The notes beneath the pieces are model-generated. The model ran no database searches and was not told the DNA's origin. It saw only the letters and a list, made by a program, of their open reading frames with translations. A stretch of DNA of 64,000 nt from a virus (lineage: Duplodnaviria; Caudoviricetes), in IMG/VR virus record IMGVR_UViG_3300043450_000376; one strand, given 5' to 3'. Shown piece by piece: positions 14,861 through 45,375 of the stretch. Numbering within the stretch: the first letter of the stretch is position 1; each line of letters opens with the position of its first letter. The position numbers and the translations under genes were made by a program.

Positions 14861-15496
14861 TTAATCTTTATCAGGATCTTTTTCGTCGTCGTCTTCTTCA
14901 TCGTCTTCATTTGGTCCAGAGATTTCGTCTAATTCTTCTTGAACTCTCTCGTGTAACATCCAAGTATTTTCATCTCGCCAATCGTTAAGAGTTTCTACAA
15001 GTTCACTACAAAAAGAGTCAATATCATCTAAATTATTCATGGAACCGCCAGTAAGATCTTCAATTGATATAAATTCATAACTACTTAAATCGCCATCGGC
15101 AATGTCTAATTGCGAAACGTCCTTTGAATCAATTTGAAATGCCCATGAATGGTTAAATCCTTTAATTAAATCTGTAACTGGGGCTAAGCCCAATTTCCAA
15201 AGTCTAACTAATTCTGGTGATAATTCGGATTCATCATCTTGAAAAGCAAGCCTAAGTCTAACTGCATAACTTGCATAAACCCTAGGTTCTTCGCCCTGAA
15301 AGTTTAGGTCATCAATATTCCAATCCTGATCAATATGTAGCGTGCTATTATTTTCATCTAGATATGCCCGGTAACCGCTCCAGCTATCCATACCATCTGC
15401 AATTTGTTCTAAGATTTCGTTAAATGCTGAATCGGCTGGTTCTTCTAGATAACCGTCGCTTTCATTTATAAATTGATTAAATCTTTTAATTTTCAT
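14861..15496 (-). CDS. acidic late protein with capsid-targeting-like leader
   Basis: MKIKRFNQFINE|S; RLWKLGL motif. Confidence 0.7.
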   Translation of the reverse strand: MKIKRFNQFINESDGYLEEPADSAFNEILEQIADGMDSWSGYRAYLDENNSTLHIDQDWNIDDLNFQGEEPRVYASYAVRLRLAFQDDESELSPELVRLWKLGLAPVTDLIKGFNHSWAFQIDSKDVSQLDIADGDLSSYEFISIEDLTGGSMNNLDDIDSFCSELVETLNDWRDENTWMLHERVQEELDEISGPNEDDEEDDDEKDPDKD

Positions 15497-15497
15497 A

Positions 15498-16787
15498 TTA
15501 ATCTAAATATTTTGCAAGTTTTCCAACCTCAGCGTAATCGCCTGCATCTAGAGCAGCATCCAGTAATTCCTGAATTTCTCTTTTACTTAATTGTGATAGG
15601 TCAGCTGGTTCGTTTTGAGTAGGAGCCATTCCAAAATCTGGAACCTCTTCATCAAATTGGCCTCTTTCCCAATCCTTTATCTCTTGTTGAATTTCTAGAA
15701 TAATATCTTTTATTTTTGCAGTTGCTCCAGCATCTTCACTAAAGATTTCTTTCATTAACTGTAAAAATTGCGTAGATTCCATTTGCATTAGTTTGCCAAA
15801 TACATGTTCTCTAATATTTTCAACCTCAACGTTATCTGTAAATCTGTTTATAAAATCTCTAAGATCTGCCGCTAAATATGGCCCATATCTTAAATCTTCT
15901 AATTCATCGCTAAGTGTTCCAGTACTTGCAATCACCTTTTCTGCCTCTTCTTCATCTTCGGGAATTGCAGCAGCACCAATTAATTTGTAAATACCTTTAA
16001 TTGTTTCATGTAATAACATTGCAAAATCTGTACCAAGTGCAGTAATGGTAGGTTCCATTTCATTAAGCGAATCTTCGATTTCTGGAGTTTGGATATCTCC
16101 ACTCTCTAAGGACTTAATGATTTCGTCTGCAGTTTGCTCGTCATTCTTAATTGGTTTCCAATCAACATCAACTGAACCACTAAATCCACTCTTATCTCGT
16201 TCCCACATCTGCTTTTGAACTTCCATTGGAATTCTCCAATCAAGTGCAGATGCAATATCTGTAATTTTCTTAAGAAGATCTATCATTTTTGCAGCACCAG
16301 CTGGTCCAAAAATCTTAATCATTCCATCCATAGTTTCAGGTAAAGCTAACATAAGTTTTGCATTTTTAGCTTCGCCCTGCATAATTGCATTGCCTATTTT
16401 ACGTTTATTAATTGCGGCAATTGTACCTGCATCAGTAATTTCCTTTTGGTCAGCTGGTGTTTCCATTTCAACTGGTTCCATCATTTGTTGGATTTCTCCC
16501 TCTTTTGGAAATTTAATAATTAATTTAGTTTGACCCAAGATTGAACCATACTGTTGCAAAATAATATATTCTGCAAGTTTTTCTAATTGAGCCTTAACCT
16601 GAGGGGTTTGCATTTGCTGAACTTGTCCAACCAACTGCATAAACTGACCCATTTCTCTGCCCAGTCTCTGCTCAGTACCTTGAACATCTTGCATTGCTCG
16701 GCGTTCAACTCCTTTTAAATATTCGCCAGGCGTGCCAGGATTTCCCTGTAAACTTGCCTCTTGTAAAAATTGTTTTATTGTTTTCAT
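15498..16787 (-). CDS. late protein with capsid-targeting-like leader
   Basis: MKTIKQFLQE|A; 429 aa helical. Confidence 0.7.
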   Translation of the reverse strand: MKTIKQFLQEASLQGNPGTPGEYLKGVERRAMQDVQGTEQRLGREMGQFMQLVGQVQQMQTPQVKAQLEKLAEYIILQQYGSILGQTKLIIKFPKEGEIQQMMEPVEMETPADQKEITDAGTIAAINKRKIGNAIMQGEAKNAKLMLALPETMDGMIKIFGPAGAAKMIDLLKKITDIASALDWRIPMEVQKQMWERDKSGFSGSVDVDWKPIKNDEQTADEIIKSLESGDIQTPEIEDSLNEMEPTITALGTDFAMLLHETIKGIYKLIGAAAIPEDEEEAEKVIASTGTLSDELEDLRYGPYLAADLRDFINRFTDNVEVENIREHVFGKLMQMESTQFLQLMKEIFSEDAGATAKIKDIILEIQQEIKDWERGQFDEEVPDFGMAPTQNEPADLSQLSKREIQELLDAALDAGDYAEVGKLAKYLD

Positions 16788-16788
16788 A

Positions 16789-18420
16789 TTACTTAAGGAA
16801 TTCCTTTGGTGTAGTACCTAATTTTTTTAATTCCATTTCAAACCTCTTAATAACATCTTCAGCAGTTGCGCTTGGTTCAGGCTTAACTGATGGTTTTTTA
16901 GTTGGGATTGGCCCTGGTCTTGGTGTTACTTTAGGTTTAGTTACTGGCTCTTTAATTGCAGGTTCAGCTGCATAGAACTCATTTACAATACTTTCACCAA
17001 GTAGTTCTAAAATTTTAGGTTCACTCTTAACGGCATTTAGTAATTGTGGATATTTAAATAATCCAGTACTGGCATAACCTTTAATCTCATCTAAAATTGC
17101 CTTTGCATTTTGAATAACCTCAGCTTTGGTTTGAGGATTAATATTTGGAAGTAACATATTAAATAGTTTAGCAGAGAAAATTGACATTACACCAAACTTC
17201 ATATATAGAGTAACAATCTCTTCTTCCTTAACTGCTGGTGCAATTCTTTCCATTAGGATATTAAGAATTACTCTAGCAGATTCTTGGTCGTCTTCTGGAT
17301 TTACTTTATAACTTGCCTTAATAACTGATTCCAATACTTGGATTGGAGATTTTTTATCAAGGTTTAATTCAGTAATTACCTTTTTAATCATTGCTTCAAT
17401 TGGAAATACTGTAATTAAGGTTTTGATTAATTTTTCTGGATAGCCAAACTGGTTAAAGTGTTTAGTAATATCGTCAGTTTGTTTAACACTTTTATCATTA
17501 ATATCATGACTATATGTAACTTTACCATCATAGGAAATAGTTGTTCCAATTAGGTGACGTGGATCAGTTGGCGGTAAACCAAAATCAAATGTATTAATTT
17601 GCACAGCGCCTCCGCCATATGAACTATTATTAAAACTTCCTCTGTTAATACACCAACTTGCAACTGAACATAATTCCTTTTGAGCTTTTTCAGTTCGGGC
17701 ACTTAACATTAAGTAGCGATCATCTGCATAAATTACAGAACCTTCTGGTTCTAATTCTTCTAATTTATCAATTTTACTTTGAACATCAGAATTTAGGTAA
17801 CCTTTAACATAGCTTTCAGCATAAACAATAAAATCAATTGGATTAGTAAAAGCTTTTGCTTTCTTTAAGAGACGCACTTTAACTTCTTGACCTAAATCAT
17901 TCATGATTGTTGCTGCATTAAATAGTCTCTGTAAGTCTTCTTTTGGTAATTCTCTAGCAGCTCTACGTAAATTTCCTGGCAATTCGTTAAGAATCCATTT
18001 TGATTTACGGCGAGTTTCAATTTGACTAAACTCATCCATTAAGGCTTCAAATGCAGGAACTCCATTTACTTTATCTTGATTTGGAAACTCAATAAGTGGA
18101 ATTGATAATTCTCCAAGAAATTGGGAATTTGCTTTGATTTTATCAAGCAATTGCTGCAACTGTTCAAATGAAACTCGGTGGTCAAATTTAAATTTAACAA
18201 AGGTTGAAGCATATCCAGGAAGTGGCTGAATTAACTGAAGAACTTTTTTATAATCTTCATTTGCAAAAACTCTAGCCTGATCCTCTGGCGCAATTTCAGA
18301 AACTTCAATTCCTTTTGCTTGTGCAAAACGTTTTAACATATATTGCTTAGCTGCCTGAACATTCTCAGTTAAGAGTCTGCTCGAACGTTTCCAGCTATTA
18401 AATGATTCTATTATTCTCAT
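16789..18420 (-). CDS. late protein with capsid-targeting-like leader
   Basis: MRIIESFNSWKRSSRLLTE|N; ELCS.ASWCI motif; Pro/Lys-rich C-terminus. Confidence 0.7.
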   Translation of the reverse strand: MRIIESFNSWKRSSRLLTENVQAAKQYMLKRFAQAKGIEVSEIAPEDQARVFANEDYKKVLQLIQPLPGYASTFVKFKFDHRVSFEQLQQLLDKIKANSQFLGELSIPLIEFPNQDKVNGVPAFEALMDEFSQIETRRKSKWILNELPGNLRRAARELPKEDLQRLFNAATIMNDLGQEVKVRLLKKAKAFTNPIDFIVYAESYVKGYLNSDVQSKIDKLEELEPEGSVIYADDRYLMLSARTEKAQKELCSVASWCINRGSFNNSSYGGGAVQINTFDFGLPPTDPRHLIGTTISYDGKVTYSHDINDKSVKQTDDITKHFNQFGYPEKLIKTLITVFPIEAMIKKVITELNLDKKSPIQVLESVIKASYKVNPEDDQESARVILNILMERIAPAVKEEEIVTLYMKFGVMSIFSAKLFNMLLPNINPQTKAEVIQNAKAILDEIKGYASTGLFKYPQLLNAVKSEPKILELLGESIVNEFYAAEPAIKEPVTKPKVTPRPGPIPTKKPSVKPEPSATAEDVIKRFEMELKKLGTTPKEFLK

Positions 18421-19027
18421 CGTTAAAATAACCTTGTTTAGTTTTTCCTTTTACATAATATCTCCAATCTTCACGACTCTTTCTTTCAGCCATTTCCAAT
18501 TGATCCCAATCAATATGTTCAGCTGCCCATTTCATTGCAACTCTATAAAATTCAGTTTCATTCGAGTACGCTGATTTTGGGATAGCTTTCATTTCGATAT
18601 CCATTGAACCTATACGGCGGCCCCATACTCCAATATTAATTCCTTTAGGAGTCATTCTGCGAATTTTACTTGGACCGGGAAAAAATCCTATACCCCAACC
18701 AGTTGATCTTGTATAACCCGGTTTTGCCCAAACAAGGGTACCATTTAAGAGTTGAGTTGGGCTTGAAACTACTGCAAGACCTTTGGCCTTTAGTAATTGA
18801 GCTTCTGGTGAATCTAAAACTTCTCTAATTTCCGGAAGCGCTGTTCCTGCGTGTTCGCCTCTAGACGTAGCCGAAAGCATTGCATCCTTTCGGATATTCT
18901 TGGAATCTTGTCTATATTGATCTGTATCAAGTAAACCAAGTTCCTTTAATCTAGCAAGCTTGGCCAATTTCTCTTCGGAAGATTCGTCTTCATTGATAAA
19001 TGCACCAAATTTTTTAAAGTATGACAT
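18398..19027 (-). CDS. late protein with capsid-targeting-like leader and RLxxLGL motif
   Basis: MSYFKKFGAFINE|D...ARLKELGL; GATAAATA at 19049-19056. Confidence 0.7.
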   Translation of the reverse strand: MSYFKKFGAFINEDESSEEKLAKLARLKELGLLDTDQYRQDSKNIRKDAMLSATSRGEHAGTALPEIREVLDSPEAQLLKAKGLAVVSSPTQLLNGTLVWAKPGYTRSTGWGIGFFPGPSKIRRMTPKGINIGVWGRRIGSMDIEMKAIPKSAYSNETEFYRVAMKWAAEHIDWDQLEMAERKSREDWRYYVKGKTKQGYFNDENNRII

Positions 19028-19098: not shown

Positions 19099-19317
19099 AT
19101 GATAGAATTAGGAAAACTTTTTACGTATTTGGTTTTAGTAGTAACATCTGGCTCAGGTACACCAGATTTTCAAGGTACATACCAATATAGTGTATATGAT
19201 GCAGAAACCTGTATTGAAGGAACTGTGTATTGTAGAACTGCACACCAGGCTGGCGATACTATTAGAATACAGATAGAAAAACCACAAGTTGCACGAAAGG
19301 TGCCAGTAAAGAATTAG
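19099..19317 (+). CDS. hypothetical protein
   Basis: follows GGTATAAT motif. Confidence 0.5.
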   Translation: MIELGKLFTYLVLVVTSGSGTPDFQGTYQYSVYDAETCIEGTVYCRTAHQAGDTIRIQIEKPQVARKVPVKN

Positions 19318-19871
19318 TAGTTACCTTGTACAATCATAAATTCTAGTTCGCCAAGATCGTCAACACCTTGTTCGTTCATCCATTCACGGCGTTGGTCCCA
19401 CTCTACTTCGTCCTCCGGATCGCCAAAATCAATATGCTTATTGATAATTTCGCTAGTTTTTCTTCTAAGAGCTTGGATTGCTTGGTCAATTTCTGGATCG
19501 CTACCCCACTCGTCTATCATATTATCCCAACGCTCGTCAAATTCTTCCTTAGGCGCAAGCCCTAGGTCTCTAAGGCGGTCTTCAATTTTAGCAGAATCCT
19601 CTTCACTTTCATATACGTCGCCTCCTTCATAATCGGCGTCAGCTTCTTCTGGAGTTGCAAAATCGCCGCAGTCTGAACAAACGCCGTAGTTTAAATTAAA
19701 TTGAGCTCCACAACAATTTGAGTGTAGACCTTGCCAAGAAGTTGGATCGTCTAAATCAATTTCACGCTTAGGGCGCAGGCCTAATTCACCTAGTCTGGCC
19801 TTTATCTTTTCTTCTTCTGGAGAATCAAAGACCCCTTCGTTAAGAAACTGTTTAAATTTTAGTGCTTTCAT
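19314..19871 (-). CDS. late protein, two RLxxLGL modules flanking a Zn-ribbon
   Basis: MKALKFKQFLNE|G; SNCCGA..GVCSDCGD; ARLGELGL and DRLRDLGL. Confidence 0.7.
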   Translation of the reverse strand: MKALKFKQFLNEGVFDSPEEEKIKARLGELGLRPKREIDLDDPTSWQGLHSNCCGAQFNLNYGVCSDCGDFATPEEADADYEGGDVYESEEDSAKIEDRLRDLGLAPKEEFDERWDNMIDEWGSDPEIDQAIQALRRKTSEIINKHIDFGDPEDEVEWDQRREWMNEQGVDDLGELEFMIVQGNY

Positions 19872-19928
19872 AATTATATTTATTTGCGCAATAGAGGATC
19901 AAATAGCCTAATTTGTGTATAATAAAAC

Positions 19929-22357: not shown

Positions 22358-23902
22358 TTAACTGTTAGGGACAGCTGGCTGAGCTATAACTGTTCCCTTA
22401 GGTAAAATTTTATTAATAACATCACCTTTATTGTATTGAACATTATTTATTGTAAATACCTTATTTACTAGATAGGTATTATCTTTTTGTTTAGCAACTG
22501 TGCCGTTTGTTAGGTAATTTTGAAGAGCTTGGTCAGAATTAAGTGTTCCAACTTTATTTGCTGCAAATGCTACTTTAACTCCAGTTAAGGTAGGCCCGGT
22601 TGCAGTAGTAACTGCTCCTTTAGCGTCTGCACTTTTTGGAACCGCTGTATTTTGAACTCCTAGGTTATTTCCGCATAGGTCAGTTTTAGCAAGTTCGCCA
22701 TTATCAGTTTTAGGATAAGTTGGGAAACCTTTTGTAATATTACCGTCAGATCCATATATCCATACGTGAGGTGCATCTGTATGACAAGCTAACCCTTTAG
22801 GTACACTATAGCCATCACCATTTTTTATACACCTAGCTCTAACTACCAGTGTCTTACCGTCGCCGGCTGATGCAATTTTCTTAACTAGGGCAGCATCATC
22901 TAAACGAAATACGTTTCGTCTAACACCGCCGTTAACCGCACCGCTATAGACTTTGTATAATTCATCGGTTGGCCCTTTTGAATTACTCATACTTGCAAAA
23001 GGCAGACCGGCTGGAATATAGCCCGACTCAGTCTTTCCACCATATGAAGTTTTTAGAGGAATTCCATTCACGGTTATTTCAAAATTTGCATGGTCACATG
23101 AATGACCAATTGTTGTATCATCATAGTTAACATAAATTTTCATACCTAATGCGCATTGACCTATTCCTGCATCTTGAACTACTATAAATTGAACAGTTGT
23201 TTTTTGATCTGCGTCATAACCCTTTTTAAGTCTAGTATATTCAAGATTAATTGCCATTGCTGCCTTTTTTACAGGGTCAGCTTCTCTCATCCATGTGCGA
23301 TAATCATCCCAGCCGCCAGACGGTTCAGTTAAGGTTTTGGCCTCTTCAAAAATAAGTCTAGCCTCTGGTAATTTAGAAATAGTTCCAGCCTGAAATAATG
23401 GTTTAAGTACATCACTAACATATGCTGCAATTTTCTCTTTACGCTTTTCAGATAACCAACCGGTTGCCTTTTGGCCAGTGCCGCCTTCCATATCAAAGTT
23501 TGGAATAATTGATTCGCTAGATTTAATAATAACTTTAGATACCCAAGTTTTAGCAGGTTCCGCTTTAAGGAAAGCTATCATATTATCAAGAGTTTCTTTA
23601 AATCTGTCTGAGTTTTTAAATGTTTTAGGCTCGCCAACCTTTGGTTTGGTTGTATGGTCTACTGAATAGTAACCTGATCCATAAAGACATAAAATATCTT
23701 TAGAGTTTCCGCCTTTGCCTGCAACAAACGGGCCAAATGTCTCGCCGGCTTCGTCAATTGGTTGAATCGCATTTGCTTCGTGATTGGCCATTACCTGGTC
23801 AATACTAATACTTTCGGTAATAAATGAGTGACTTGCACAACCGCACTCGCTAATTGGGTTTTGTTTTTCAAATAACCAATCGTGGTATTTCTTAATTTCC
23901 AT
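22358..23902 (-). CDS. late protein with OmpA-C-like domain and capsid-targeting-like leader
   Basis: MEIKKYHDWLFE|K; VIIKSSES..WLSEKRKEKIAAYV..YDADQ. Confidence 0.55.
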   Translation of the reverse strand: MEIKKYHDWLFEKQNPISECGCASHSFITESISIDQVMANHEANAIQPIDEAGETFGPFVAGKGGNSKDILCLYGSGYYSVDHTTKPKVGEPKTFKNSDRFKETLDNMIAFLKAEPAKTWVSKVIIKSSESIIPNFDMEGGTGQKATGWLSEKRKEKIAAYVSDVLKPLFQAGTISKLPEARLIFEEAKTLTEPSGGWDDYRTWMREADPVKKAAMAINLEYTRLKKGYDADQKTTVQFIVVQDAGIGQCALGMKIYVNYDDTTIGHSCDHANFEITVNGIPLKTSYGGKTESGYIPAGLPFASMSNSKGPTDELYKVYSGAVNGGVRRNVFRLDDAALVKKIASAGDGKTLVVRARCIKNGDGYSVPKGLACHTDAPHVWIYGSDGNITKGFPTYPKTDNGELAKTDLCGNNLGVQNTAVPKSADAKGAVTTATGPTLTGVKVAFAANKVGTLNSDQALQNYLTNGTVAKQKDNTYLVNKVFTINNVQYNKGDVINKILPKGTVIAQPAVPNS

Positions 23903-23994: not shown

Positions 23995-24273
23995 ATGAAA
24001 AAATCAAGTATTGTTGCCGCCGTTGCAACTGGGTTAGTACTTTTAACCATTGCGGTTAGCTCAATTGTGTCAAACCGCAAACTGGCTGGGCAAGTCGCCG
24101 CACAAAAGCAATTTATTGAACAGCGCGAGGCCCTAATTGATTCGCTGCATGCCGAACTATTTATTGCCAATGTTACAATTGCCCGTACTGAATTTACGCT
24201 CGAGTGGCTAAACGAGGTCAATCCACCAGCATTTATTCAGTTTAGTCAGTACTATGATCATCAGACTGAATAG
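23995..24273 (+). CDS. N-anchored membrane protein
   Basis: N-terminal TM. Confidence 0.55.
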   Translation: MKKSSIVAAVATGLVLLTIAVSSIVSNRKLAGQVAAQKQFIEQREALIDSLHAELFIANVTIARTEFTLEWLNEVNPPAFIQFSQYYDHQTE

Positions 24274-24308
24274 TGGCAAATAAATAACTCAAATAAATCT
24301 ATTATAGG

Positions 24309-24944: not shown

Positions 24945-24971
24945 CTAGACTCACCTATATCTTAAATTACT

Positions 24972-24996
24972 AAAGAGGCGCCTAGCCTCTTTTTTT
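24972..24996 (+). terminator. intrinsic terminator
   Basis: AAAGAGGC-N5-GCCTCTTT + T run. Confidence 0.7.
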
Positions 24997-25062
24997 ATGC
25001 AGTATTCCTGGACCCCGCCGAGTGCGCCCGCGCAAGGGGGTTGGGGTTAAGAGTGGTGAGGC

Positions 25063-25635
25063 CTAGCGCCTACCCCAGCGCCAACTACGACCATGGGCAT
25101 CAAGTGCAACTTGGTACATAAATCTGGCCAGGGCTGTACCCGGCTCAGTTAAGCCATCGAATATAACCTGACGGTTAGAGGTTGGTTGGCCAATTCGACC
25201 AGAGTTACGTAGAGAACCTGGGAAAATCCAGTATTCAAACCTAGAGCTCAATGAGGTCTCCATCTCCATTTGACGCTGCCACTGCTGCAGCTCCCCTTTT
25301 ATCTTTGCATAGCGTGCCTCTTGAGCAGGGCTTAAGCCCTTAGGCAAGTCAGCAGTAAAGAGAATTTCGGCTGCATCAGCTGGGCTAATTTTAAGCACGA
25401 CTGTACCATTATCCGCCTGGCGGCCTGTTGCCCAATCCCGCCACTCTAGCCCAAGATCCGCAAATAGGGTCTTGAGGGCGGCAACAAATTCGCTACGATA
25501 CTGTTTATCCAAACCAAGCTCCTGTAATTTCTGTTTAAAATCCTCGGGTTCTATTAAGCCTAGTGCCAACATGCGCCTAGCTGCGGCAATCTCTTCAGCG
25601 GATTCAAATAGGCGGTATGGTTTTAAATATTTCAT
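25063..25635 (-). CDS. late protein with leader and RLxxLGL-like motifs
   Basis: MKYLKPYRLFE|S..RRMLALGL, KLQELGL. Confidence 0.65.
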   Translation of the reverse strand: MKYLKPYRLFESAEEIAAARRMLALGLIEPEDFKQKLQELGLDKQYRSEFVAALKTLFADLGLEWRDWATGRQADNGTVVLKISPADAAEILFTADLPKGLSPAQEARYAKIKGELQQWQRQMEMETSLSSRFEYWIFPGSLRNSGRIGQPTSNRQVIFDGLTEPGTALARFMYQVALDAHGRSWRWGRR

Positions 25636-25637
25636 AG

Positions 25638-26288
25638 TTAGTTGGTTTCTTCTATTTCAACACCGATAAATGGTACAAAGACCTTGTCCATCCACTTGAT
25701 AATTTCGTCTGCTATCCACCTACTCTGTGCAACCGTGCTTGGTATCCATTGATACCCACCAATTGGTCTTTCCCAGAAATAGTCAGGTACCGTAATAAGC
25801 TGACTACTATCAAGTCGACCGGCTGCCTTTTGAAAACGAATTACCAATCTGCAATTCCATACCTTATAACTATAGTTAACGCCCTTATCAATATAGACAC
25901 TATAATAAGGATCGCGCCCGCCTTTACCCTGCTGGTGGATCCTGATTTCGTCAAATGCCAGTTTTTCTACATCTAAATTAGGGTAGTGACTGGCTAACCG
26001 CTCCTTAACTAGCAATACTACATCATCTTTAATCTTGCTCCAATCCTCTAGATCAATCATACCTAGATCAACAAGTCTAACATATTGGGTCCAGAAAGGA
26101 TCCGCAGATTCGGTAATAGCAGGGGTATTGTCATGCCAGCACTTGTGACATAGATAGGGATTGGTTTCGCCGCCATCCAAGCCATCCGCTAGATTCCAAC
26201 TCCAGTTACAGCTTTTACCACTGCAGTGCACAACACCAGACTGGACCTCTTCGGTAATAAAATCTTTGTATAGTCTGATATGTTTCAT
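25638..26288 (-). CDS. late protein with leader, Zn-ribbon and RLxxLG motif
   Basis: MKHIRLYKDFITE|E; CSGKSC..YLCHKC; ITE|S..VRLVDLGM. Confidence 0.65.
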   Translation of the reverse strand: MKHIRLYKDFITEEVQSGVVHCSGKSCNWSWNLADGLDGGETNPYLCHKCWHDNTPAITESADPFWTQYVRLVDLGMIDLEDWSKIKDDVVLLVKERLASHYPNLDVEKLAFDEIRIHQQGKGGRDPYYSVYIDKGVNYSYKVWNCRLVIRFQKAAGRLDSSQLITVPDYFWERPIGGYQWIPSTVAQSRWIADEIIKWMDKVFVPFIGVEIEETN

Positions 26289-26291
26289 AGA

Positions 26292-26717: not shown

Positions 26718-26759
26718 AATAATATTGTTATAGTTATAAAGATATTTATTAGCAAAAGA

Positions 26760-27127: not shown

Positions 27128-27222
27128 CAGGTCTCCAGCCGGTCCAGCAGGAGGTATTGCACTAGCCCTGTACCTACTCTGCGCAGGTAAACCTATACCC
27201 CTAGCCTAGTATAATAACTATA

Positions 27223-27528: not shown

Positions 27529-27531
27529 CAT

Positions 27532-27717: not shown

Positions 27718-27758
27718 TAACTTTATTTTTGGGTGTCAAGTTAATTGGTTATATTTAC
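27711..27758 (+). promoter_or_regulatory. early promoter, copy 1 (TGTTAATAAC box 38 bp upstream of TATATTTAC)
   Basis: TTGTTAATAACTTT..GTGTCAAG..TATATTTAC. Confidence 0.75.
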
Positions 27759-27779
27759 TCTATAACTAAATGATATACG

Positions 27780-39757: not shown

Positions 39758-40876
39758 ATGACAGGAAAAAAAGAAGTCCAAGTCCGCAAGTATTTCTCAC
39801 AGGAATTCGGCGGCGAAGTTCCAACCGGCAAGGTATTGGATCTATTCCAAAACTTTCAGACCCATCCTCTAGGCGAGGGTATCTCTTATTCGCTCTTTAA
39901 CGGAGTTATAAAGAAGTTACGCGGTCCACAAACCCCAGCTGATGTAACACAAACCAGCCGAGTAGTTGCAACACCAGCTGCAGCAACCAAGGATTTTGAA
40001 TTAGAGATTGTCGAGATTGGCAATATGGAATTTCCTGATTTTAAATGCTTTAAGACTGGTACCCTATTAGACAAGTTATTTTCAGACCACGAAGATGGCG
40101 GAGGTATCTATGGTGGTACTGCTAATATTGTAATCGGCGAGTCGGGCGTGGGTAAATCAACTGTAATGCTAGATGTTCTTGCTAAGATTAAGCGTAATCA
40201 ACCTGAAGCAAAGATCCTCTATATCTCTAGCGAAATGACTCGTAATGATCTCTTCTTCTACTACAGTAAAATGCCGATTATTGCCGAGGTTCCTACCTTA
40301 CTCTTAATGGATTATATCCAAACGGGTTTTGTGAAAGCAATTGAAAAGGCCTTGACTGGAGAACACGATGTAATCCTTATTGACTCGCACCAAGATATTA
40401 TTGTAAAGCTAAAGGATGTCTTAGGCTGGAAGTCAACCTATGCAGAGGCATGGTTAACTAATCTTGTAATCAAAGCTGCAGACGGTATGGGTAAATCAAT
40501 CTTCTGTATTCAACACATGACAAAGGGCGGTACCTATGTAGGAAGTACTTATCTTAAACATGCGACTACCTCAATGATGGAGATTAAGTTTGGCCCAGGC
40601 AATCGCAGATACTTAGAGTTCACAAAGAACCGTAGAGGCGGCAGCTTAGTAAATAAACCCCTCTTCTATTCAATGGCAGATGGTCAAGTAGTTTACGATC
40701 AAGCAAGTTGGGATCTTCAAATCCGAGCTGAGGATGTTGCACATACCGAAGAGGCAAGGCGAGAAGAATTAGAGAGCGAGTTTGATGCTCTATTTCTAAG
40801 CGCAACCTTAGCAACCTCATCAGTAGAGGAGCCAACTGAATTTACTGAAGAAAATAAAGTTGAGGTAGAGCAGTAA
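39758..40876 (+). CDS. RadA/Sms-like RecA-fold ATPase (no Zn finger or Lon domain)
   Basis: Walker A GESGVGKST, LYISSEM, Walker B ILIDS, HMTKGG.YVGS..LKH. Confidence 0.75.
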   Translation: MTGKKEVQVRKYFSQEFGGEVPTGKVLDLFQNFQTHPLGEGISYSLFNGVIKKLRGPQTPADVTQTSRVVATPAAATKDFELEIVEIGNMEFPDFKCFKTGTLLDKLFSDHEDGGGIYGGTANIVIGESGVGKSTVMLDVLAKIKRNQPEAKILYISSEMTRNDLFFYYSKMPIIAEVPTLLLMDYIQTGFVKAIEKALTGEHDVILIDSHQDIIVKLKDVLGWKSTYAEAWLTNLVIKAADGMGKSIFCIQHMTKGGTYVGSTYLKHATTSMMEIKFGPGNRRYLEFTKNRRGGSLVNKPLFYSMADGQVVYDQASWDLQIRAEDVAHTEEARREELESEFDALFLSATLATSSVEEPTEFTEENKVEVEQ

Positions 40877-40930
40877 CTCTGCCTACTTCTTTAGTATAAT
40901 AGTATTAACCAAAAAAACCAAATAAAATAT

Positions 40931-42052
40931 ATGTTATCACAAGCACAATTTAACGAGGCAAAATTAGCCGCAATCAACACTGAACCGCTGACTAAACCCG
41001 TAATGCTAAGTGAGATCAAATTGAGTGACAATTCACAGAAGGATGGCTTCATCCACTTGAATGACTCAAGGGTCCCAGCTAGCGGCGCGTTTTTTAAACA
41101 GCTGGCTTCCCTACTTAACATCAACCAAACCTTAAACTCTAAGTTTGAGAAGAATGGTGATGCTGCAATCGGTAATAAACTTATCGGCGCAGTCAAGCAC
41201 TACACAGAGAACCGAGGTGGAGATGTTCCCCTAATGATGGTTGCAAATCGTGATCATCGCGAAATTACAGGTATCGTAAAGGCAGACAAGTTTGCACGTA
41301 TCTCTAATGAGACTCTATTTAAAACTGCAGAAGGAATCCTTAACGAGGTACCGGACATGCATATTGAGTCTATTGACAATGGTAACGGCACCAGTCGTAT
41401 TAACTTGATCCATACCAGTGAGGTAGGTTTTGAGCGTATCGGCCCAGACGAAGTATTCCGTTTCGGAGTTTCATTAGTGAACAGCCCTACACAAACTCAA
41501 GTAGATGATTTCTTCTACAGATTAGTATGTGCTAATGGCGCAGTTGCTAAAGACATGACAGCAGCCTTCCAATTAAAACAGGCAAATGCTACAGGTATTG
41601 CCGAGTTATTCCAATCCCTTAAAGCTTATGGTAAAACAGGTTTTGTACCGCGTGCCTTTGCTGAAAGATTAGAACGTGCAACCGGTACACGCGCAAGTTT
41701 GCAAGAGGTACAAAGAGCAGTGGACTCCGTAGTAGGTAACCTTAAACATGAGGATCCGGAAATGAGACGTCGTCTACAGGAAAGCGTAGTGGACAACCAC
41801 TTCCCAATGTATAAGTCTACCATGGCCAGAGTATTTAATGCAGGCCATAACCCAGATTTCTTAACAGACAAGCAAAAGAGTTTCGTTAAGACAGGTATGA
41901 GTGTATGGGATCTTGTCAACGAGTTGACTTGGTTAGGTAGCCATAACACTGTTGAAGAGTATGAAAACCGTGCACGCTTTAAAGCTGCAGGTGGAAGCCT
42001 CTTCGCTAAGAGTAACTATGATTTAGAAGCAGCACAGTTTGCGACTATATAG
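40931..42052 (+). CDS. DUF932/DUF945-like protein
   Basis: GVSLVNS....FYRLVCANG; WDLVNELTWLGSH. Confidence 0.6.
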   Translation: MLSQAQFNEAKLAAINTEPLTKPVMLSEIKLSDNSQKDGFIHLNDSRVPASGAFFKQLASLLNINQTLNSKFEKNGDAAIGNKLIGAVKHYTENRGGDVPLMMVANRDHREITGIVKADKFARISNETLFKTAEGILNEVPDMHIESIDNGNGTSRINLIHTSEVGFERIGPDEVFRFGVSLVNSPTQTQVDDFFYRLVCANGAVAKDMTAAFQLKQANATGIAELFQSLKAYGKTGFVPRAFAERLERATGTRASLQEVQRAVDSVVGNLKHEDPEMRRRLQESVVDNHFPMYKSTMARVFNAGHNPDFLTDKQKSFVKTGMSVWDLVNELTWLGSHNTVEEYENRARFKAAGGSLFAKSNYDLEAAQFATI

Positions 42053-42076
42053 TTTGATGATTGATTGATTAGGATT

Positions 42077-42100
42077 AGGCCCTCTACAAGAGGGCCTTTT
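42077..42100 (+). terminator. intrinsic terminator ending the early island
   Basis: AGGCCCTCT-ACA-AGAGGGCCT + T run. Confidence 0.8.
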
Positions 42101-42231
42101 TCTTTTAGGATAAAACCGTACTCCGTAGTAGAGTACAAGATCTTGGAGTTCTTATCCAGCTATTTAAATCTAGACCGTTTCAATAGCAAACCCAAAGGGA
42201 TCTGCGCAAGCTGATCCCTTCTTTTTTGGAG

Positions 42232-42360
42232 TCAGCGACCTTGTCCTTGATACTTCTTAGGTTTCTGTTCCTTAGGACCGAAGCTCTTCTTTGCCTTGCC
42301 AACCTTCTTTACAGTAGGACGGAAGGTAGAGCCAGCAGTTGCGCCTTTCTTTGTTGCCAT
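42232..42360 (-). CDS. small basic late protein (42 aa, not in ORF track)
   Basis: MATKKGATAGSTFRPTVKKVGKAKKSFGPKEQKPKKYQGQGR; TATAAATA at 42385-42392; hairpin 42195-42220 downstream. Confidence 0.7.
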   Translation of the reverse strand: MATKKGATAGSTFRPTVKKVGKAKKSFGPKEQKPKKYQGQGR

Positions 42361-42524
42361 TTCTAGACCGGGTTATTTTGCAATTATTTATAAGTTATAG
42401 GTATAATAGAAATAGGCCCAAAAGCCCGGGCCCATGCCGACGGGGCATAGGTATTTATGGTGACCCCGCTCCGTGGGGATCCCCGGCCCCTGGAGAAATG
42501 CTCCTCTATTAGGGCCGCCAGAAA

Positions 42525-42582
42525 TTGTTAATAACTTTATGCAAAAAGATTGTCAGGAGTCATGGAAAAGTGGTATATTAGC
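42525..42582 (+). promoter_or_regulatory. early-type promoter (48-bp spacing) with no convincing downstream ORF
   Basis: TTGTTAATAACTTT..TTGTCA..TATATTAGC. Confidence 0.6.
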
Positions 42583-42734
42583 TATAGGTAACCGGTTAAG
42601 AACTCCGACCCAGGGCTGGACCCAGCATAAGGATCCAGAAGAGTATACTCCGACCTGCCTCTCTCTAGGGGGCAGGACTAATGTACTACTCTATACAACG
42701 CATTAGTTTTGAACCAGTTAGACAACCCTAAGTG

Positions 42735-43367
42735 CTAGATACCAAGCTCCTTGGCGCTAGCGATTATATCGACCAGCTCCTCCTTGATTTCGTCGATATA
42801 TTCCTGTCGGCCAACCTTCGGCTGGATTATATGTATATCTACACCATGATAAATCAGTACCCGTTCAAGTATATCCCAAGCAAGGAATCTGGCTAGCCTG
42901 TCCGGGGTCTCGATAATCAGGGTGCTGACCTTTTTACGTACAACCAGATCCATAATTCGGTTCAAGCCCGGTGCATTATCATCTAGCCTGTTCGCGCGCC
43001 TAACCTCTTGGATTACCTCATCGACCCTGATACCCCGGGCTGTGCAGTAACCCTGTACCCGGTCTAGCTGGCTACGCAGCCTGCTCGTACTGGATATTCC
43101 GGCTGCCCCAGAGTCTGGAATGGGGCTCGTTCTACAATATATTATTACTAGCCTGTCTTGAGGTACTCTACTCCCTAGTAGATATAGTATCTGGTCTGAG
43201 TCTATATAGACCCTACCATTAACCCGGTTCTTCATAGGTGTTATCTTACCCTGTTCTATATAGCGACCTAGAGTTCGGGTAGTTACACCTAGTCTCTGCG
43301 CGGCTTCGCGACTACTTATTAATTCGCCAGTAGGCAAGGTCTGCGGTATCGTAGGTTCTATCTTCAT
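42735..43367 (-). CDS. tnpA: IS607-type serine recombinase (MerR-like HTH + resolvase catalytic domain), no adjacent tnpB
   Basis: SSREAAQRLGVTTRTL.RY, YCRTS nucleophile, DRLARF; GATAAATAA at 43374-43382. Confidence 0.8.
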   Translation of the reverse strand: MKIEPTIPQTLPTGELISSREAAQRLGVTTRTLGRYIEQGKITPMKNRVNGRVYIDSDQILYLLGSRVPQDRLVIIYCRTSPIPDSGAAGISSTSRLRSQLDRVQGYCTARGIRVDEVIQEVRRANRLDDNAPGLNRIMDLVVRKKVSTLIIETPDRLARFLAWDILERVLIYHGVDIHIIQPKVGRQEYIDEIKEELVDIIASAKELGI

Positions 43368-43500
43368 ATAGGGTTATTTATCTAGCCCCATACAGACAGC
43401 CTGGAACCCGGTGTCAGCGGATGTCTACTAGTGTCTACAGTTCCGGGTGGATCGCCCGACCCGAGGATTCCGTTGCGGGCCCCGAGTCGAGAGGCGCACC

Positions 43501-43630
43501 ACTCCGTAGTCCTTAAGTAGGACCAAGTGGGTCAGTCTGGGTCGGCTGGCTGCTGGCACTCCGTAGTCCCGGTATCTAGGCTAGGTGCTGGCTGGGGTCT
43601 AGCCTATATAGGTTACTCCGTAGTCCCGGT
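43501..43630 (+). repeat. three ACTCCGTAGTCC direct repeats at exact 57-bp period
   Basis: copies at 43501, 43558, 43615; last two extend to ACTCCGTAGTCCCGGT. Confidence 0.85.
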
Positions 43631-43843
43631 CTGGGCAGGTAGAGTCTATATAGGATTGGTGATAATATAGAGAAGAGTAGACTAGGAGGGTCTTATACCT
43701 AGGGTTAGGCTTGTTCTTTCTATTATTAATATAAGTAGAGAAAGTATCTATAGAAACAGGAGTAGTCTAGATATAGGTAGTATTATTATTGGTAAAGAGC
43801 CGCCCCTTTGAGTTTAGAGGCGGCAAAATACCTAGACCCGGTT

Positions 43844-44458
43844 TTAGCAGGCAAAATAGCCATGTACCCAGCCGCAATTATTAACCTGTAAGGTTGTACC
43901 GCCAGATGGAATATCAACATCATTAACATGGTACCAGCTACCCCCACCAAGGAAGGGCTGAGTCAAGGACTGGTCTAGCCAGATGCGGTCGACCTGTTGC
44001 CACTCCTCGCGCTGTACCCATACCGTCTGATTATACGGCCCTTGTAGATTACACTGGGTTGAGCTTGGCTGGGTGATCCTGACCTGGATAGCCTCGGGCT
44101 GGGCAATAGTTTCAATCGCTGCAATACCCGACGCGTTGTATTTTATTAGCTGGCTATCAATGCGATACCAGTTACCGTTAATTAAGGTCGCAATCTCTTG
44201 GCTTAGGCCGCTATCTAGATAGAGTCGGGCGCCAACCTCTAGGGTAGGGCTGCTTGGCCATACTTGAGCAAAGCTGCTATTGTTGCCGGCTAGACTCCAC
44301 CAGTCATTAATATCGCCATCGCCTTGTGCGCCAACAAATAGGCTGTCAAATTCATAGCCGTATCGCAATTGTAGAGAGTTGGTACAGGCAACAGTTAGTG
44401 TGGCGGCTGCTCCACCTGCTCGGCGGCCTAATAGGGTATAGTAGTAGTTATGATTCAT
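43844..44458 (-). CDS. hypothetical late beta-rich protein
   Basis: ATAAATA at 44482-44488; W/Y/G-rich. Confidence 0.6.
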   Translation of the reverse strand: MNHNYYYTLLGRRAGGAAATLTVACTNSLQLRYGYEFDSLFVGAQGDGDINDWWSLAGNNSSFAQVWPSSPTLEVGARLYLDSGLSQEIATLINGNWYRIDSQLIKYNASGIAAIETIAQPEAIQVRITQPSSTQCNLQGPYNQTVWVQREEWQQVDRIWLDQSLTQPFLGGGSWYHVNDVDIPSGGTTLQVNNCGWVHGYFAC

Positions 44459-44481
44459 AGGTATAGAGACTTTGTTATAGC

Positions 44482-44503
44482 TATTTATTATCCGGATAAA
44501 TAA
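44482..44503. promoter_or_regulatory. back-to-back T4-type late promoters
   Basis: TATTTAT-TATCCG-GATAAATAA between divergent genes. Confidence 0.65.
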
Positions 44504-44525
44504 TAAGAAAAGAGTTCTACTCTAT

Positions 44526-44948
44526 ATGAAGGCAAAATCATTTAGTCAATTTATTACCGAAGACCACAACGATGATGCACAACAACATCAGGTTTATCGC
44601 AGACTACAGGGGCTTGGACTTGCTGACTCTCCACTTGAAGGATTGGAGAAGATGTTGATACAGCGCCGCTGGAAATGGGAAAAGGTTGATAGCGACCGCA
44701 CCTTTGCAATTGAGCTAACCCGATGGGAAGCTGAGTCGACCTATCTGTCGCGAATGGGTGCGCGCCACCAAAAGAAATATCCTAATGTCTACTATTTTAG
44801 TGTAACTGATCTAGGTGCCGAGCCCAATCAGGTTCGAATCCTGTGGTATTCAAGTAAAGACTCTGTTAAGGAGGTGCAGGTTGCCGCAGAGCCAGAGGTA
44901 ATAGTACGCAAGATTGAACAATTATTTGGTGAACGCAGTGCAGATTAA
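44526..44948 (+). CDS. late protein with leader and RLxxLGL motif
   Basis: MKAKSFSQFITE|D..RRLQGLGL. Confidence 0.7.
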   Translation: MKAKSFSQFITEDHNDDAQQHQVYRRLQGLGLADSPLEGLEKMLIQRRWKWEKVDSDRTFAIELTRWEAESTYLSRMGARHQKKYPNVYYFSVTDLGAEPNQVRILWYSSKDSVKEVQVAAEPEVIVRKIEQLFGERSAD

Positions 44949-45375
44949 CAGAGCCAACATATCAGAAGCATTTTCATTTGGGGCATGGCAGCGACTACAG
45001 GATCTGGGCCTAAGCGAAGAAGGTATTGTTGCAAAGCGTATTGAACTATATCGCAAGCTGGTAAGTCAGGTTGTAGATCCAGAAGAATTTAAAAGGGTTC
45101 TAGTTGAACTTGGTCTCGCTATTATTAAGGTTAACGTTACCCGCAATAAAGGCTATGCTATGCACCAATCGGTTGCCATTGCTGGGCCAGAAGAGGCGTT
45201 TGAAGAATTAGATAGGTGGTGGCATAGTCAAACTGGTCGAGACTGTCCACTATACCTGCACCTTGAGCCTCACCATGCAAATAGCCCGCTGGTTAGGGAT
45301 CGTTGGGAAAGGGCAGTTTCAAGCGGAACCCCATTTACAGTTGGTGCGCTTAGCGACCATGCTGCAAAATTATAA
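44914..45375 (+). CDS. protein with RLxxLGL motif
   Basis: NISE|A..QRLQDLGL; start codon uncertain. Confidence 0.55.
   Translation: MNNYLVNAVQINRANISEAFSFGAWQRLQDLGLSEEGIVAKRIELYRKLVSQVVDPEEFKRVLVELGLAIIKVNVTRNKGYAMHQSVAIAGPEEAFEELDRWWHSQTGRDCPLYLHLEPHHANSPLVRDRWERAVSSGTPFTVGALSDHAAKL

Follow-up and report, generated by a model that had tools for sequence, protein, structure and literature searches.

A SHOCT-like helical hairpin that may head cargo units behind aliphatic-x-Glu sites in large uncultured phages

The recurrence of one short motif, RLxxLGL, in otherwise dissimilar proteins of a single phage, mostly just behind what look like maturation sites, raises the question of what this shared element is and what it does there. 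We addressed this question in IMG/VR record IMGVR_UViG_3300043450_000376 (Caudoviricetes), using its 64,000-nucleotide stretch (herein referred to as the window). The first-pass annotation had proposed a portable amphipathic helix, exposed by prohead cleavage and acting as an ejection signal, sorting signal or docking tag for a subset of cargo. The account that we consider probable as a whole is that a SHOCT-like hairpin heads cargo units behind aliphatic-x-Glu↓Ser/Ala sites in large uncultured phages (the arrow marks the predicted bond).

All eight peptides quoted in that annotation were recovered from the open reading frames (ORFs) to which it had assigned them. Written as R[LM]xxLG[LM], the motif has eight copies among the window's 108 non-overlapping ORFs (19,144 aa), spread over seven genes, all of which carry a leader of the T4-like capsid-targeting type. 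These copies, with two degenerate ones, lie as follows:

15185-15205, minus strand: motif codons in gene 14861..15496
18932-18952, minus strand: motif codons (RLKELGL) in gene 18398..19027
19557-19577 and 19776-19796, minus strand: motif codons in gene 19314..19871
25510-25530, minus strand: degenerate copy KLQELGL
25555-25575, minus strand: motif codons in gene 25063..25635
26058-26078, minus strand: motif codons in gene 25638..26288
44601-44621, plus strand: motif codons in gene 44526..44948
44992-45012, plus strand: motif codons in gene 44938..45375 (the 44914 ORF)
45097-45117, plus strand: degenerate copy VLVELGL

Shuffling residues within proteins (2000 rounds) produced a mean of 0.06 and a maximum of two matches, against the eight observed. 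The strict motif is present in 6 of the 23 leader proteins defined by regular expression and in 1 of the 85 others (Fisher p = 3e-4), which bears out the proposed enrichment among leader-bearing proteins; the sole carrier outside the defined set, the 44914 ORF, itself has a short conserved leader (MxINRxxIxE↓A/S). The motif-bearing share amounts to about one third of the proteins apparently packed into the head of a giant phage. A 30-aa hidden Markov model of the surrounding module assigns 17-35 bits to the true copies and to their orthologs, and leaves the interval of 8-17 bits empty across about 250 kb (the window and two relatives), the ortholog scores being the only independent ones since the model was trained on window copies. 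In one of these relatives (G001, 141,925 bp), the strict motif is confined to five orthologous leader genes. The DNA segments that encode the motif share a mean identity of 39% (maximum 52%) and vary freely in the codons of conserved residues, indicating conservation at the protein level and ruling out a repeat or recombination cassette at the level of DNA. The motif is thus shown to exist, to be discrete and to be conserved as protein sequence. Similarity in all-versus-all BLASTP is restricted to the leader and motif region, the downstream regions being mutually dissimilar, and about 19 payload clusters that BLAST finds unrelated carry the module; the description of the motif as portable and of its downstream domains as unrelated therefore stands. 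No near-identical DNA was found among GenBank phages, and PHROGs gave no useful match on the motif proteins. The only phage-record relatives of a neighbouring gene, with 20-26% identity, come from two megaphage contigs that are each about 640 kb long.

In predicted structures, RLxxLGL covers the last part of helix 1 and the glycine turn in a helix-turn-helix module of about 30 residues. Numbered from the glycine (0), the consensus is hydrophobic at -10 and -7, R at -5, L at -4, D/E at -2 and L at -1 on the upstream side, and L/M at +1, I/V at +2, D/P at +3, E/D at +6 and an aromatic or aliphatic residue at +7 on the downstream side. Across 24 copies, R occupies -5 in 83%, D/E occupies -2 in 75% and an acid occupies +6 in 67% (13 Glu, 3 Asp), positions -7, -4, -1, +1, +2 and +7 are hydrophobic in 88-100%, and similarity extends over some 30 columns in a fixed register (R -5, D -2, D +3, E +6, aromatic +7). 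The AF2 model of the 18398 protein has helices at residues 17-29 and 35-52 joined by a turn at 30-34 (L30-G31-L32); that of the 25063 protein has a helix at 9-24, a turn and helices at 30-39 and 42-60, with pLDDT below 50 for exactly residues 1-11. The glycine between the helices is invariant in five family alignments (A1, A2, A3, A5 and A7). The earlier picture of an amphipathic helix is hence altered in that the models place a helix, a glycine turn and a second helix where a single helix had been envisaged; amphipathicity itself stands, at a moderate level (muH about 0.4). Together with a mean net charge of -1.8 and a mean hydrophobicity of -0.16 to -0.25 for the module and its flanks, this value disfavours, as weak evidence, both direct DNA binding and membrane surface-seeking helices. 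The conserved residues can all be explained structurally (a mini-core, helix caps and a possible salt bridge), with no separate binding surface evident. Fold searches of the 18398 and 25063 models against the PDB gave no significant match for either, nor did a search of the 18398 model against AFDB clusters, and the motif profile found nothing below E = 0.4 among PDB sequences. The one complex prediction (25063 residues 12-66 with 18398 residues 14-56, in one job) returned a score of 0.01 and "no answer", which is neither support nor counter-evidence.

The genes that carry the module, which we take as putative cargo genes, are arranged as follows:

14861..15496, minus strand: putative cargo gene, 211 aa, leader residues 1-12 (FINE↓S)
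15149-15238, minus strand: internal SHOCT-like module of the 14861 gene, residues 87-116, motif at residue 98
18398..19027, minus strand: putative cargo gene, 209 aa, leader residues 1-13 (MSYFKKFGAFINE↓D)
18896-18985, minus strand: SHOCT-like module of the 18398 gene, residues 15-44, with RLKELGL inside
19314..19871, minus strand: putative two-unit precursor, 185 aa, leader residues 1-12 (LNE↓G)
19740-19829, minus strand: SHOCT-like copy 1 (residues 15-44), in unit 1 with a Cys4 zinc ribbon (weak Pfam match)
19605-19616, minus strand: predicted internal site VYE88↓S89
19521-19607, minus strand: SHOCT-like copy 2 (residues 89-117), in unit 2 with a payload
25063..25635, minus strand: putative cargo gene, 190 aa, leader residues 1-11 (LFE↓S)
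25450-25602, minus strand: three helices each ending in LG (RMLALGL, KLQELGL, FADLGL), residues 12-62
25638..26288, minus strand: putative two-unit precursor, 216 aa, leader residues 1-13 (FITE↓E)
26109-26249, minus strand: zinc-ribbon mini-unit, residues 14-60, ending at ITE60↓S61
26022-26108, minus strand: SHOCT-like module of the 25638 gene, residues 61-89, then payload
44526..44948, plus strand: putative cargo gene, 140 aa, leader residues 1-12 (FITE↓D)
44568-44657, plus strand: SHOCT-like module of the 44526 gene, residues 15-44, helix 2 out of register with the other copies
44938..45375, plus strand: putative cargo gene, 145 aa from GTG 44938, short leader VQINRANISE↓A
44959-45048, plus strand: SHOCT-like copy 1 of the 44938 gene
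45064-45153, plus strand: degenerate copy 2 of the 44938 gene

The 44914 ORF probably starts at GTG 44938 and not at TTG 44914. All 24 of its homologs keep an I/L-x-E↓A/S site (P3 Ile and P1 Glu invariant) and both motif copies, and most begin M(L/Q)I(N/K/Q)R..I.E↓(A/S); no relatives of this ORF were found in IMG/VR. The 24 homologs of the 18398 protein (A1), the most distant with 38% identity, all share F7, E13 and G31, and L27 is nearly invariant; in the 25063 alignment (A3), S12, L25 and G26 are invariant and E11 is nearly so. The Glu or Ser of the predicted site and the Leu-Gly of the motif thus vary no more than core residues do in three families, at identities as low as 31-38% in these alignments.

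All seven motif genes have a short leader ending in aliphatic-x-Glu (INE↓D, LNE↓G, LFE↓S, ITE↓E, ITE↓D, ISE↓A and INE↓S). The proposal that the motif lies just after a Glu site holds for seven of the eight quoted copies, with 9-14 residues from E to R, and fails for the copy in the 14861 gene, the exception to the rule, where an aliphatic-x-Glu site is absent upstream, as it is in the G001 and G002 orthologs that keep the motif. Among 38 non-redundant copies, 29 have [LIV]xE↓[SAGND] 7-16 residues ahead of the Arg. Internal sites behave as had been suggested: every internal first copy (22/22, in 13 multi-unit proteins) is preceded by [LIV]xE↓[SA], the chance expectation being roughly estimated at about 7% per copy. 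Second tandem copies have no upstream site. Conversely, 17 of the 23 leader proteins have a site without a module, and the 22358 protein has a conserved internal ITE site and no module; since most leader proteins lack it, the module appears dispensable for targeting and for cleavage in general. At the level of sequence, then, the coupling of the module to predicted Glu↓Ser junctions is demonstrated.

Comparison of orthologs extends this coupling to the architecture of the genes, and bears on the suggestion that the 19314 and 25638 genes are mini-polyproteins. In the 19314 type (alignment A9, E88 invariant), unit 1 is missing from P0140 and from the G002 ortholog, in which the leader Glu is followed directly by that Ser/Ala-type position; in the 25638 type (alignment A8, S61 invariant), residues ~14-57 are missing from P0175 and from the G001 ortholog, where the leader runs straight into the payload as leader-ITE↓SADPF or LVE↓SADPF. 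Four homologs of the 25063 protein have an extra domain between the leader and I/LGE↓SQEEV (a SET domain in P0131; PF05618 in P0125, P0132 and P0139). Orthologs thus place the same payload straight after the leader or after an intervening domain, and retain the Glu↓Ser junction in both cases. In P0136, the adjacent 25638- and 25063-type genes are fused via VTE↓SAEEV, and the genes that neighbour the locus are the same. Chains of 3-5 units occur in P0149, P0151, P0164 and P0171 (the units of P0151 and P0171 being paralogous repeats), and the 50%-GC phage contig that encodes P0164 has four further small leader-plus-motif genes. Fusion, fission and insertion polymorphisms thus fall exactly at the predicted Glu↓Ser junctions, and the "portable" and "mini-polyprotein" readings are supported by these comparisons.

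We hypothesize that the evolutionary unit consists of a cleavage site, a short acidic Ser-x-x-Glu helix cap, the SHOCT-like hairpin and a variable payload. Such units stand singly behind a leader of 10-13 residues or are chained two to five times behind one leader, which would make cargo polyproteins, with the two-unit genes 19314 and 25638 as the examples in the window. In this lineage, 9-16 residues separate the module from an aliphatic-x-Glu↓Ser/Ala bond ahead of it, and T4-like capsid-targeting leaders terminate in a bond of this type; cleavage by a Glu-specific prohead protease would hence place the module at the very N-terminus of the mature protein. Both the cutting of these junctions by a prohead protease and the status of the module-bearing proteins as capsid cargo are inferred, the former by analogy: T4 gp21 and giant-phage proteases cut after Glu (T4 Alt at ITE-6 and LTE-619; PMC5694885), and SPN3US gp245 prefers Ser just after the cut (PMC10052503). 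A prohead protease, a T4-type capsid protein and a portal were not found in the incomplete sequences of the window, G001 and G002, so that cleavage rests on this analogy. Specifically, neither G001 (55% complete) nor G002 (20% complete) matched PF03420 (the gp21 family, Peptidase_S77), PF07068 or PF07230; neither PF03420 nor a head-gene family is among the 25 Pfam families listed of the 31 matched by the window's 78 largest ORFs; and PHROGs named neither a prohead protease nor a head gene among 10 ORFs of the G001 structural region.

The closest known domain is the bacterial SHOCT domain (PF09851; SHOCT_2, PF20612; and the "SHOCT-like" bihelical domains of Ravi et al. 2024), of which the module is, judging from profile comparisons, a divergent relative. 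We use the term SHOCT-like because the window proteins fall far below the Pfam cut-off (the best reaches 12.2 bits on SHOCT_2 and 9.8 on SHOCT, against a gathering threshold of 27 bits; the G001 ortholog reaches 14.5 bits). A leader-plus-motif profile searched against 1.84e9 proteins recovers the Pfam SHOCT proteins P0163 (37 bits, E = 1.6e-4) and P0174 (26.8 bits, E = 5e-4), through the motif part of the profile only. By hhalign, a motif alignment (A5) matches one of SHOCT copies (A4) over 31 ungapped columns (probability 95.5%, E = 1.4e-8), a comparison biased by the SHOCT copies having been picked partly for their likeness to the motif. P0147, a member of the 18398 family, scores 24.3 bits (E = 2.4e-5) on Pfam SHOCT; the match covers residues 20-39, and the Gly is residue 31 in P0147 and in the window protein alike. 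Among 39 phage leader-plus-motif proteins, SHOCT is matched more often than any other Pfam family, any SHOCT match being found in just 1/24 and 2/39 family members. The published SHOCT profile (a conserved Gly and Glu, two charged and five hydrophobic positions, and two helices; PMC3581485) agrees with that of the module, which likewise has about 30 residues, two helices with an invariant Gly joint, a basic residue at G-5, an acid at G+6 and an aromatic at G+7, and is joined to many unrelated domains, as SHOCT is (PMC3581485). The conserved Glu is less strict than in Pfam's description, and helix 2 deviates from the register in both the 44526 copy and the second 44914 copy. Unlike SHOCT, which is C-terminal in 89% of Pfam members (PMC3581485), the module follows the leader at the N-terminus or lies internally in every window gene. 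It is found in phage proteins whose leaders are of the capsid-targeting type, and is tied there to an aliphatic-x-Glu↓Ser junction ahead of it. Among possible look-alikes, peptidoglycan-binding, SAP/HeH and UBA-like motifs were dropped in favour of SHOCT, with no such Pfam match on the window proteins; two weak PG_binding_2 matches (best E = 0.023) occur among the 39 phage proteins.

What the hairpin does is a separate matter. It may be a common docking or localisation handle by which each released payload binds the same partner, whether in the capsid or within the infected cell, a reading to which we give a little less than an even chance. A more specific and more speculative version, which we hold to be rather unlikely, makes it a second-stage address tag that would act only once the protease has removed the upstream part: a subset of injected proteins would dock to one partner (the capsid core, setting exit order, or the host inner membrane at the entry site), bacterial SHOCT domains would be tags for the same kind of partner, and injected cargo would be encoded as true polyproteins of up to five payloads. 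For SHOCT itself, self-association was unsupported in the single published oligomerisation test (PMC3581485), and anchoring to the inner membrane leaflet is a prediction (PMC11237479). The hairpin could also be read as a junction or cap with no partner, a stable element that exposes the site, lets the next payload fold and provides a protease-resistant N-terminus. We regard this as a minority prospect, with the following in its favour: the conserved positions are all structural (the mini-core, Ser-x-x-Glu capping helix 1, Asp-x-x-Glu capping helix 2 and the Gly turn), helix 1 begins at the Ser after the predicted cut in the AF2 models, the module is present at every internal junction seen, and the 25063 protein uses LGL as a helix stop three times. 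A pure cap fits poorly with the copies that have no site to serve (the second tandem copies and that of 14861), with the sites that do without a cap (in the 17 leader proteins and 22358), with an E-to-G spacing that varies from 9 to 16 residues and with SHOCT relatives in bacteria outside any cleavage context.

Two further alternatives dispute the premises. Were there no proteolysis, the leader and module would be an uncleaved N-terminal region of non-cargo proteins, hydrophobic-x-Glu-Ser would be a helix cap, and the multi-unit genes would be ordinary repeat or fusion proteins; the failure to find protease and head genes in the available sequence agrees with this, as does the paralogy of the P0151 and P0171 units, whose junction residues could be inherited. 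We nevertheless judge it improbable. An aliphatic residue three before Glu is unneeded for capping, yet is found at 22/22 internal junctions and at the leader ends; the downstream gene fused in P0136 keeps only x-x-Glu↓Ser of its leader; each of the unrelated inserts (SET, PF05618 and the zinc ribbon) has gained a new [LIV]xE↓S at its end; AF2 leaves the 25063 leader disordered up to the site; and the pattern agrees with the T4 gp21 sites ITE and LTE (PMC5694885). We give least credence, and very little, to convergence on a helix stop, whereby hydrophobic-Gly-hydrophobic commonly ends helices and the copies would be homologous neither to one another nor to SHOCT and would share no function. 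The recurrence of LGL within 25063, the sub-threshold Pfam scores of all window proteins and the loose LxxLG[LMI] matches found elsewhere fit such convergence, but the 30-column similarity in fixed register, the bimodal gap in model scores, the E-values of 1e-3 or below in 1.84e9 proteins, the hhalign probability and the P0147 score do not.

The preferred account, cleavable units headed by a SHOCT-like hairpin, has partial parallels in known systems. As in the gp21-processed internal proteins and Alt of T4, diverse unrelated payloads stand behind a common N-terminus with a short leader ending in I/L-x-Glu (ITE and LTE in T4 Alt; PMC5694885; PMC3012670); for T4, however, a second shared element behind the cut has not been described, the cargo proteins are single units, and the gp21-family, T4-type capsid and portal genes were not found in the available sequence of this lineage. 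The phiKZ gp175 and SPN3US gp245 systems likewise have Glu-specific sites, Ser preferred after the cut, several sites per precursor and many cargo proteins in a large capsid (PMC10052503; PMC5694885), the sites being predicted in our case. Their extra cuts fragment long propeptides that are then discarded, whereas the pieces between sites here look like folded payloads, are stand-alone genes in sister phages and are each headed by the same small module. Viral polyproteins, such as those of picornaviruses, similarly hold several units per ORF with short conserved protease sites between them, and their units are separate or fused genes across relatives; in contrast, the chained units here belong to a dsDNA phage, would be accessory cargo and not replication or capsid proteins, and would be processed inside the prohead, the cleavage being predicted by analogy.

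We found no published account of a SHOCT-like tag behind phage cleavage sites or of polyprotein-encoded accessory proteins in dsDNA phages. If the proposed account is true, it would provide a rule by which these phages build and diversify an injected arsenal, namely a leader followed by any number of units of Glu↓Ser site, SHOCT-like handle and payload, and this rule would help to predict virion cargo from sequence in many uncultured jumbo phages. SHOCT, which is widespread and has been of unknown function since 2013, would gain a setting with clear read-outs (packaging, release, localisation and partner capture). Prohead-processed cargo polyproteins would be a new theme of gene organisation for dsDNA phages, and could serve as an off-the-shelf scheme in which a single targeting signal brings several proteins into a capsid.

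Eight peptides of the RLxxLGL type had been quoted in the first-pass annotation of this phage-like, 35% GC window (for which no near-identical sequence was found among GenBank phages), and all eight lie in the ORFs named there, which we denote by their start coordinates (14861, 18398, 19314, 25063, 25638, 44526 and 44914). Additional degenerate copies, KLQELGL in 25063 and VLVELGL in 44914, each lie downstream of the first copy. The pattern R[LM]xxLG[LM] occurs eight times among 108 non-overlapping ORFs, where within-protein shuffles lead to a mean expectation of 0.06. About 22 window ORFs open with a leader of the form MKxxKxFxxF(I/L)xE, resembling T4 internal proteins, and the proposed association of motif and leader holds: the motif occurs in 6 of the 23 leader proteins defined by regex, versus 1 of the 85 others (p = 3e-4), the sole carrier outside the leader set being the 44914 ORF. 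With a 30-residue HMM, true copies score 17-35 bits and everything else <8 bits in the window and 194 kb from two IMG/VR relatives, the ortholog scores being the only independent ones because the model was trained on window copies. The conserved motif residues are encoded by varied codons and the coding DNA segments are on average 39% identical, so the similarity is maintained in protein; a DNA repeat as the origin of the motif is ruled out on the same grounds.

The listed TTG 44914 start probably makes the 44914 ORF too long. The N-termini of 24 homologs point to a start at GTG 44938 (145 aa; hereafter the 44938 gene), which overlaps the stop codon of 44526-44948 and leaves a short leader, M(L/Q)INRxxIxE|A/S (the bar marks the predicted cut), conserved across the 24 homologs. 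Similarly, 26292-26861 (-) has an odd N-terminus from its listed GTG, and starting at an internal ATG instead gives a protein of 141 aa with a typical leader, MNRIKRFSEYLVE|A. Two islands of ~45% GC (24001-28000 and 40001-46000) interrupt a genome of otherwise 35% GC and together contain four of the seven motif genes (25063, 25638, 44526 and 44938); one further gene is pertinent here:

42735-43367, (-) strand: serine recombinase (Resolvase and HTH_17)

The high-GC islands, the recombinase, the failure to find any relative of the 44914 ORF in IMG/VR and the restriction of motif occurrences in G001, a related IMG/VR contig, to orthologs of the five motif genes other than 44526 and 44938 point to recent acquisition.

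A residue profile of 24 diverse copies, anchored on the motif glycine (position 0), extends well beyond the heptapeptide: positions -10 and -7 are hydrophobic, -5 is Arg (83%), -4 Leu/Met (100%), -2 Asp/Glu (75%), -1 Leu (100%), +1 Leu/Met/Ile/Val, +2 Ile/Val/Leu/Ala, +3 Asp/Pro, +6 Glu/Asp (67%) and +7 aromatic or aliphatic (92%). In AlphaFold models of two families (18398, pLDDT 78, helices 17-29 and 35-52; 25063, pLDDT 86, helices 9-24 and 30-39), helix 1 ends in RLxxL, a Gly-Leu turn follows and helix 2 begins at about +4. The single amphipathic helix envisaged earlier must hence be replaced by a hairpin resembling SHOCT, in view of both the modeled shape and profile similarity. SHOCT domains comprise about 30 residues in two amphipathic helices; they are free of indels and, besides an invariant Gly, conserve a Glu, two further charged residues and five hydrophobic positions (PMC3581485), a description that the residue profile and two-helix prediction of the phage module fit.

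A 52-column profile covering leader and motif, run against 1.84 billion representative proteins, retrieved the membrane proteins P0163 (E = 1.6e-4) and P0174 (5e-4) through the motif columns alone, and these score 37 and 26.8 bits, respectively, against Pfam SHOCT. Comparison of the 24 phage copies with seven SHOCT copies by hhalign gave 95.5% probability over 31 ungapped columns, a figure biased by SHOCT copies having been partly picked for similarity. SHOCT is also the most frequent Pfam match among 39 phage leader-plus-motif proteins; P0147, which belongs to the 18398 family and bears a leader, matches it at residues 20-39 (24.3 bits, E = 2.4e-5), and its Gly is residue 31, as in the window 18398 protein. 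The window proteins themselves reach at most 12.2 bits (cut-off 27), and the phage module is N-terminal or internal whereas SHOCT is normally C-terminal; on account of these scores and this position, we call the module SHOCT-like, a probable divergent relative rather than a regular member, and one that may work in the manner of SHOCT. The SHOCT-like core is also used as a repeat outside any leader context: P0153 (579 aa, metagenomic, leaderless) carries three tandem copies of EYKRLRDLGM(S/T)DA(D/E)(V/I)RSA(V/I)TP(V/I)YG(S/T)QTD and then a Gln/Gly-rich tail.

The claim that the motif sits just after maturation sites is upheld, in that the motif Arg of seven of the eight listed copies comes 9-14 residues after an aliphatic-x-Glu, either internal or at the leader end. 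The intervening stretch in window genes is acidic and usually starts Ser-x-Glu-Glu, a helix N-cap. In three families, aligned down to 31-38% identity, the site Glu or Ser and the motif Leu-Gly are invariant and conserved on a par with core residues of the payload (F7, E13 and G31 in the 18398 family; S12, L25 and G26, with E11 nearly so, in the 25063 family; Ile-x-Glu in the 44914 family). Across non-redundant copies, [LIV]xE|[SAGND] lies 7-16 residues before the Arg in 29 of 38, N-terminal copies being biased toward having a site since the search profile included the leader. Internal copies are free of that bias in their selection: each of the 22 internal first copies in 13 multi-unit proteins has [LIV]xE|[SA] upstream, at a Glu-to-Gly spacing of 9-16, where chance would place such a site in roughly 7% of cases. 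Second copies in tandem arrays, the 14861 family and bacterial SHOCT proteins are the exceptions that lack an upstream site.

The window-lineage junctions have the same form as T4 gp21 sites, which include ITE-6 and LTE-619 in Alt (PMC5694885), and share with SPN3US gp245 the preference for Ser directly after the cut (PMC10052503). Neither a prohead protease nor a T4-type capsid protein or portal was found among the matches listed for the window or in the related contigs G001 (55% complete) and G002. Separately, 22358-23902 (-) has a leader MEIKKYHDWLFE|K, a 17-residue Cys-rich peptide and a second FITE|S with no SHOCT-like module after it; GITE|Q is retained in its homolog in L020, and this second site is a possible internal cleavage site that lacks the motif.

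Sequence comparison at the internal sites of orthologs and homologs bears out the suggestion that two window genes resemble mini-polyproteins, with the following order of parts:

25638: leader-FITE|E, 47-residue zinc ribbon, ITE|SADPFW...RLVDLGM
19314: leader-LNE|G, SHOCT-like copy 1, zinc ribbon, VYE|SEED...RLRDLGL

In P0175 and the G001 ortholog of 25638 the ribbon is absent and the leader runs straight into ITE|SADPF or LVE|SADPF, and in P0140 and the G002 ortholog of 19314 the leader Glu is joined directly at the VYE|SEED point, this Glu being invariant. Insertions obey the same borders: within the 25063 family a SET domain (in P0131) or, in P0125, P0132 and P0139, a PF05618 domain follows the leader and ends in a new IGE|S or LGE|S junction, and a SET-domain protein of this kind takes the place of 25063 in a relative's locus, with neighboring genes unchanged. 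P0136 joins a 25638-type and a 25063-type protein in one ORF, the second leader being lost apart from VTE|S; it adjoins amidase and ~530-aa genes, as do the separate window genes. Chains of three to five units are found in P0171, P0149, P0151 and P0164, every unit starting with [LIV]xE|[SA] and the module. The five-unit P0164 lies on L018, a phage-like contig (74 kb, 50% GC), where it adjoins four small genes:

L018 12366-12713: leader-plus-motif gene
L018 14649-15005: leader-plus-motif gene
L018 15002-15370: leader-plus-motif gene
L018 18163-18501: leader-plus-motif gene

The architecture is thus not limited to the window's phage, as this different, higher-GC lineage carries the same gene type. 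That fusion, fission and insertion all fall at a single type of junction is expected of polyproteins processed by a protease and hard to explain by other accounts.

The payloads are diverse, as had been claimed of both the motif's portability and the unrelated downstream domains: the seven window genes are alike in their N-terminal region only, and once leader and module are removed, the remainders of 51 proteins fall into 22 clusters unrelated by BLAST, of which about 19 come from phage leader proteins. Neither the 18398 nor the 25063 payload model, both of them confident, has a significant PDB match, nor the former a significant AFDB-cluster match; judged from the models, both are possibly new folds. 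Examples of leader-bearing proteins without the motif lie at three positions:

12695-13546, (-) strand: motif-free leader-bearing protein
24309-24944, (+) strand: motif-free leader-bearing protein
50722-51486, (+) strand: motif-free leader-bearing protein

Among them are a weakly matched M48/M78-like peptidase, an Amidase_2 cell-wall hydrolase and a nucleotidyltransferase, which would fit an injected enzyme set. A Pfam census of 78 window ORFs identified a Tad6-type Thoeris inhibitor (E = 4e-17), a histone-deacetylase-family protein, UvdE, Fpg, PRPP synthetase, topoisomerase II subunits and a sigma factor, and no head or tail genes among the matches listed.

These sequences support a predicted building block in which a Glu|Ser site and a short acidic cap precede a SHOCT-like hairpin with its payload; the block stands singly behind a targeting leader or is repeated several times in tandem. 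By analogy with T4, whose capsid-targeting sequence and gp21 system we liken to the window leaders and sites, and with giant phages, the leader would carry the precursor into the prohead, where the head protease would cut after each Glu and leave the hairpin heading every payload; the multiple cuts in phiKZ and SPN3US are likened to the multi-unit precursors here, in which cleavage is predicted. We found no published account of a shared structured element right after the cut, of SHOCT-like modules on phage head cargo or of stand-alone payloads chained through such junctions.

What the hairpin does once exposed is more tentative, the ejection or sorting role suggested earlier included. Its charge is near neutral to acidic and its amphipathicity modest; these properties, weak evidence as they are, lend no support to direct binding of DNA or lipid. 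The main rival reading makes it a junction or N-terminal cap with a structural role only and draws on the fact that every conserved residue can be read as a determinant of the fold; we regard this reading as rather unlikely. The module is present without a site in tandem copies and in 14861 and is retained on each unit even where the leader has become dispensable in fusions. Both observations favor a putative common docking or localization handle, as does the attachment of bacterial relatives to many unrelated, mostly membrane-proximal proteins, for which non-self binding or inner-leaflet anchoring has been proposed (PMC3581485; PMC11237479). We tentatively hold, at somewhat less than even confidence, that the hairpin may be such a handle.
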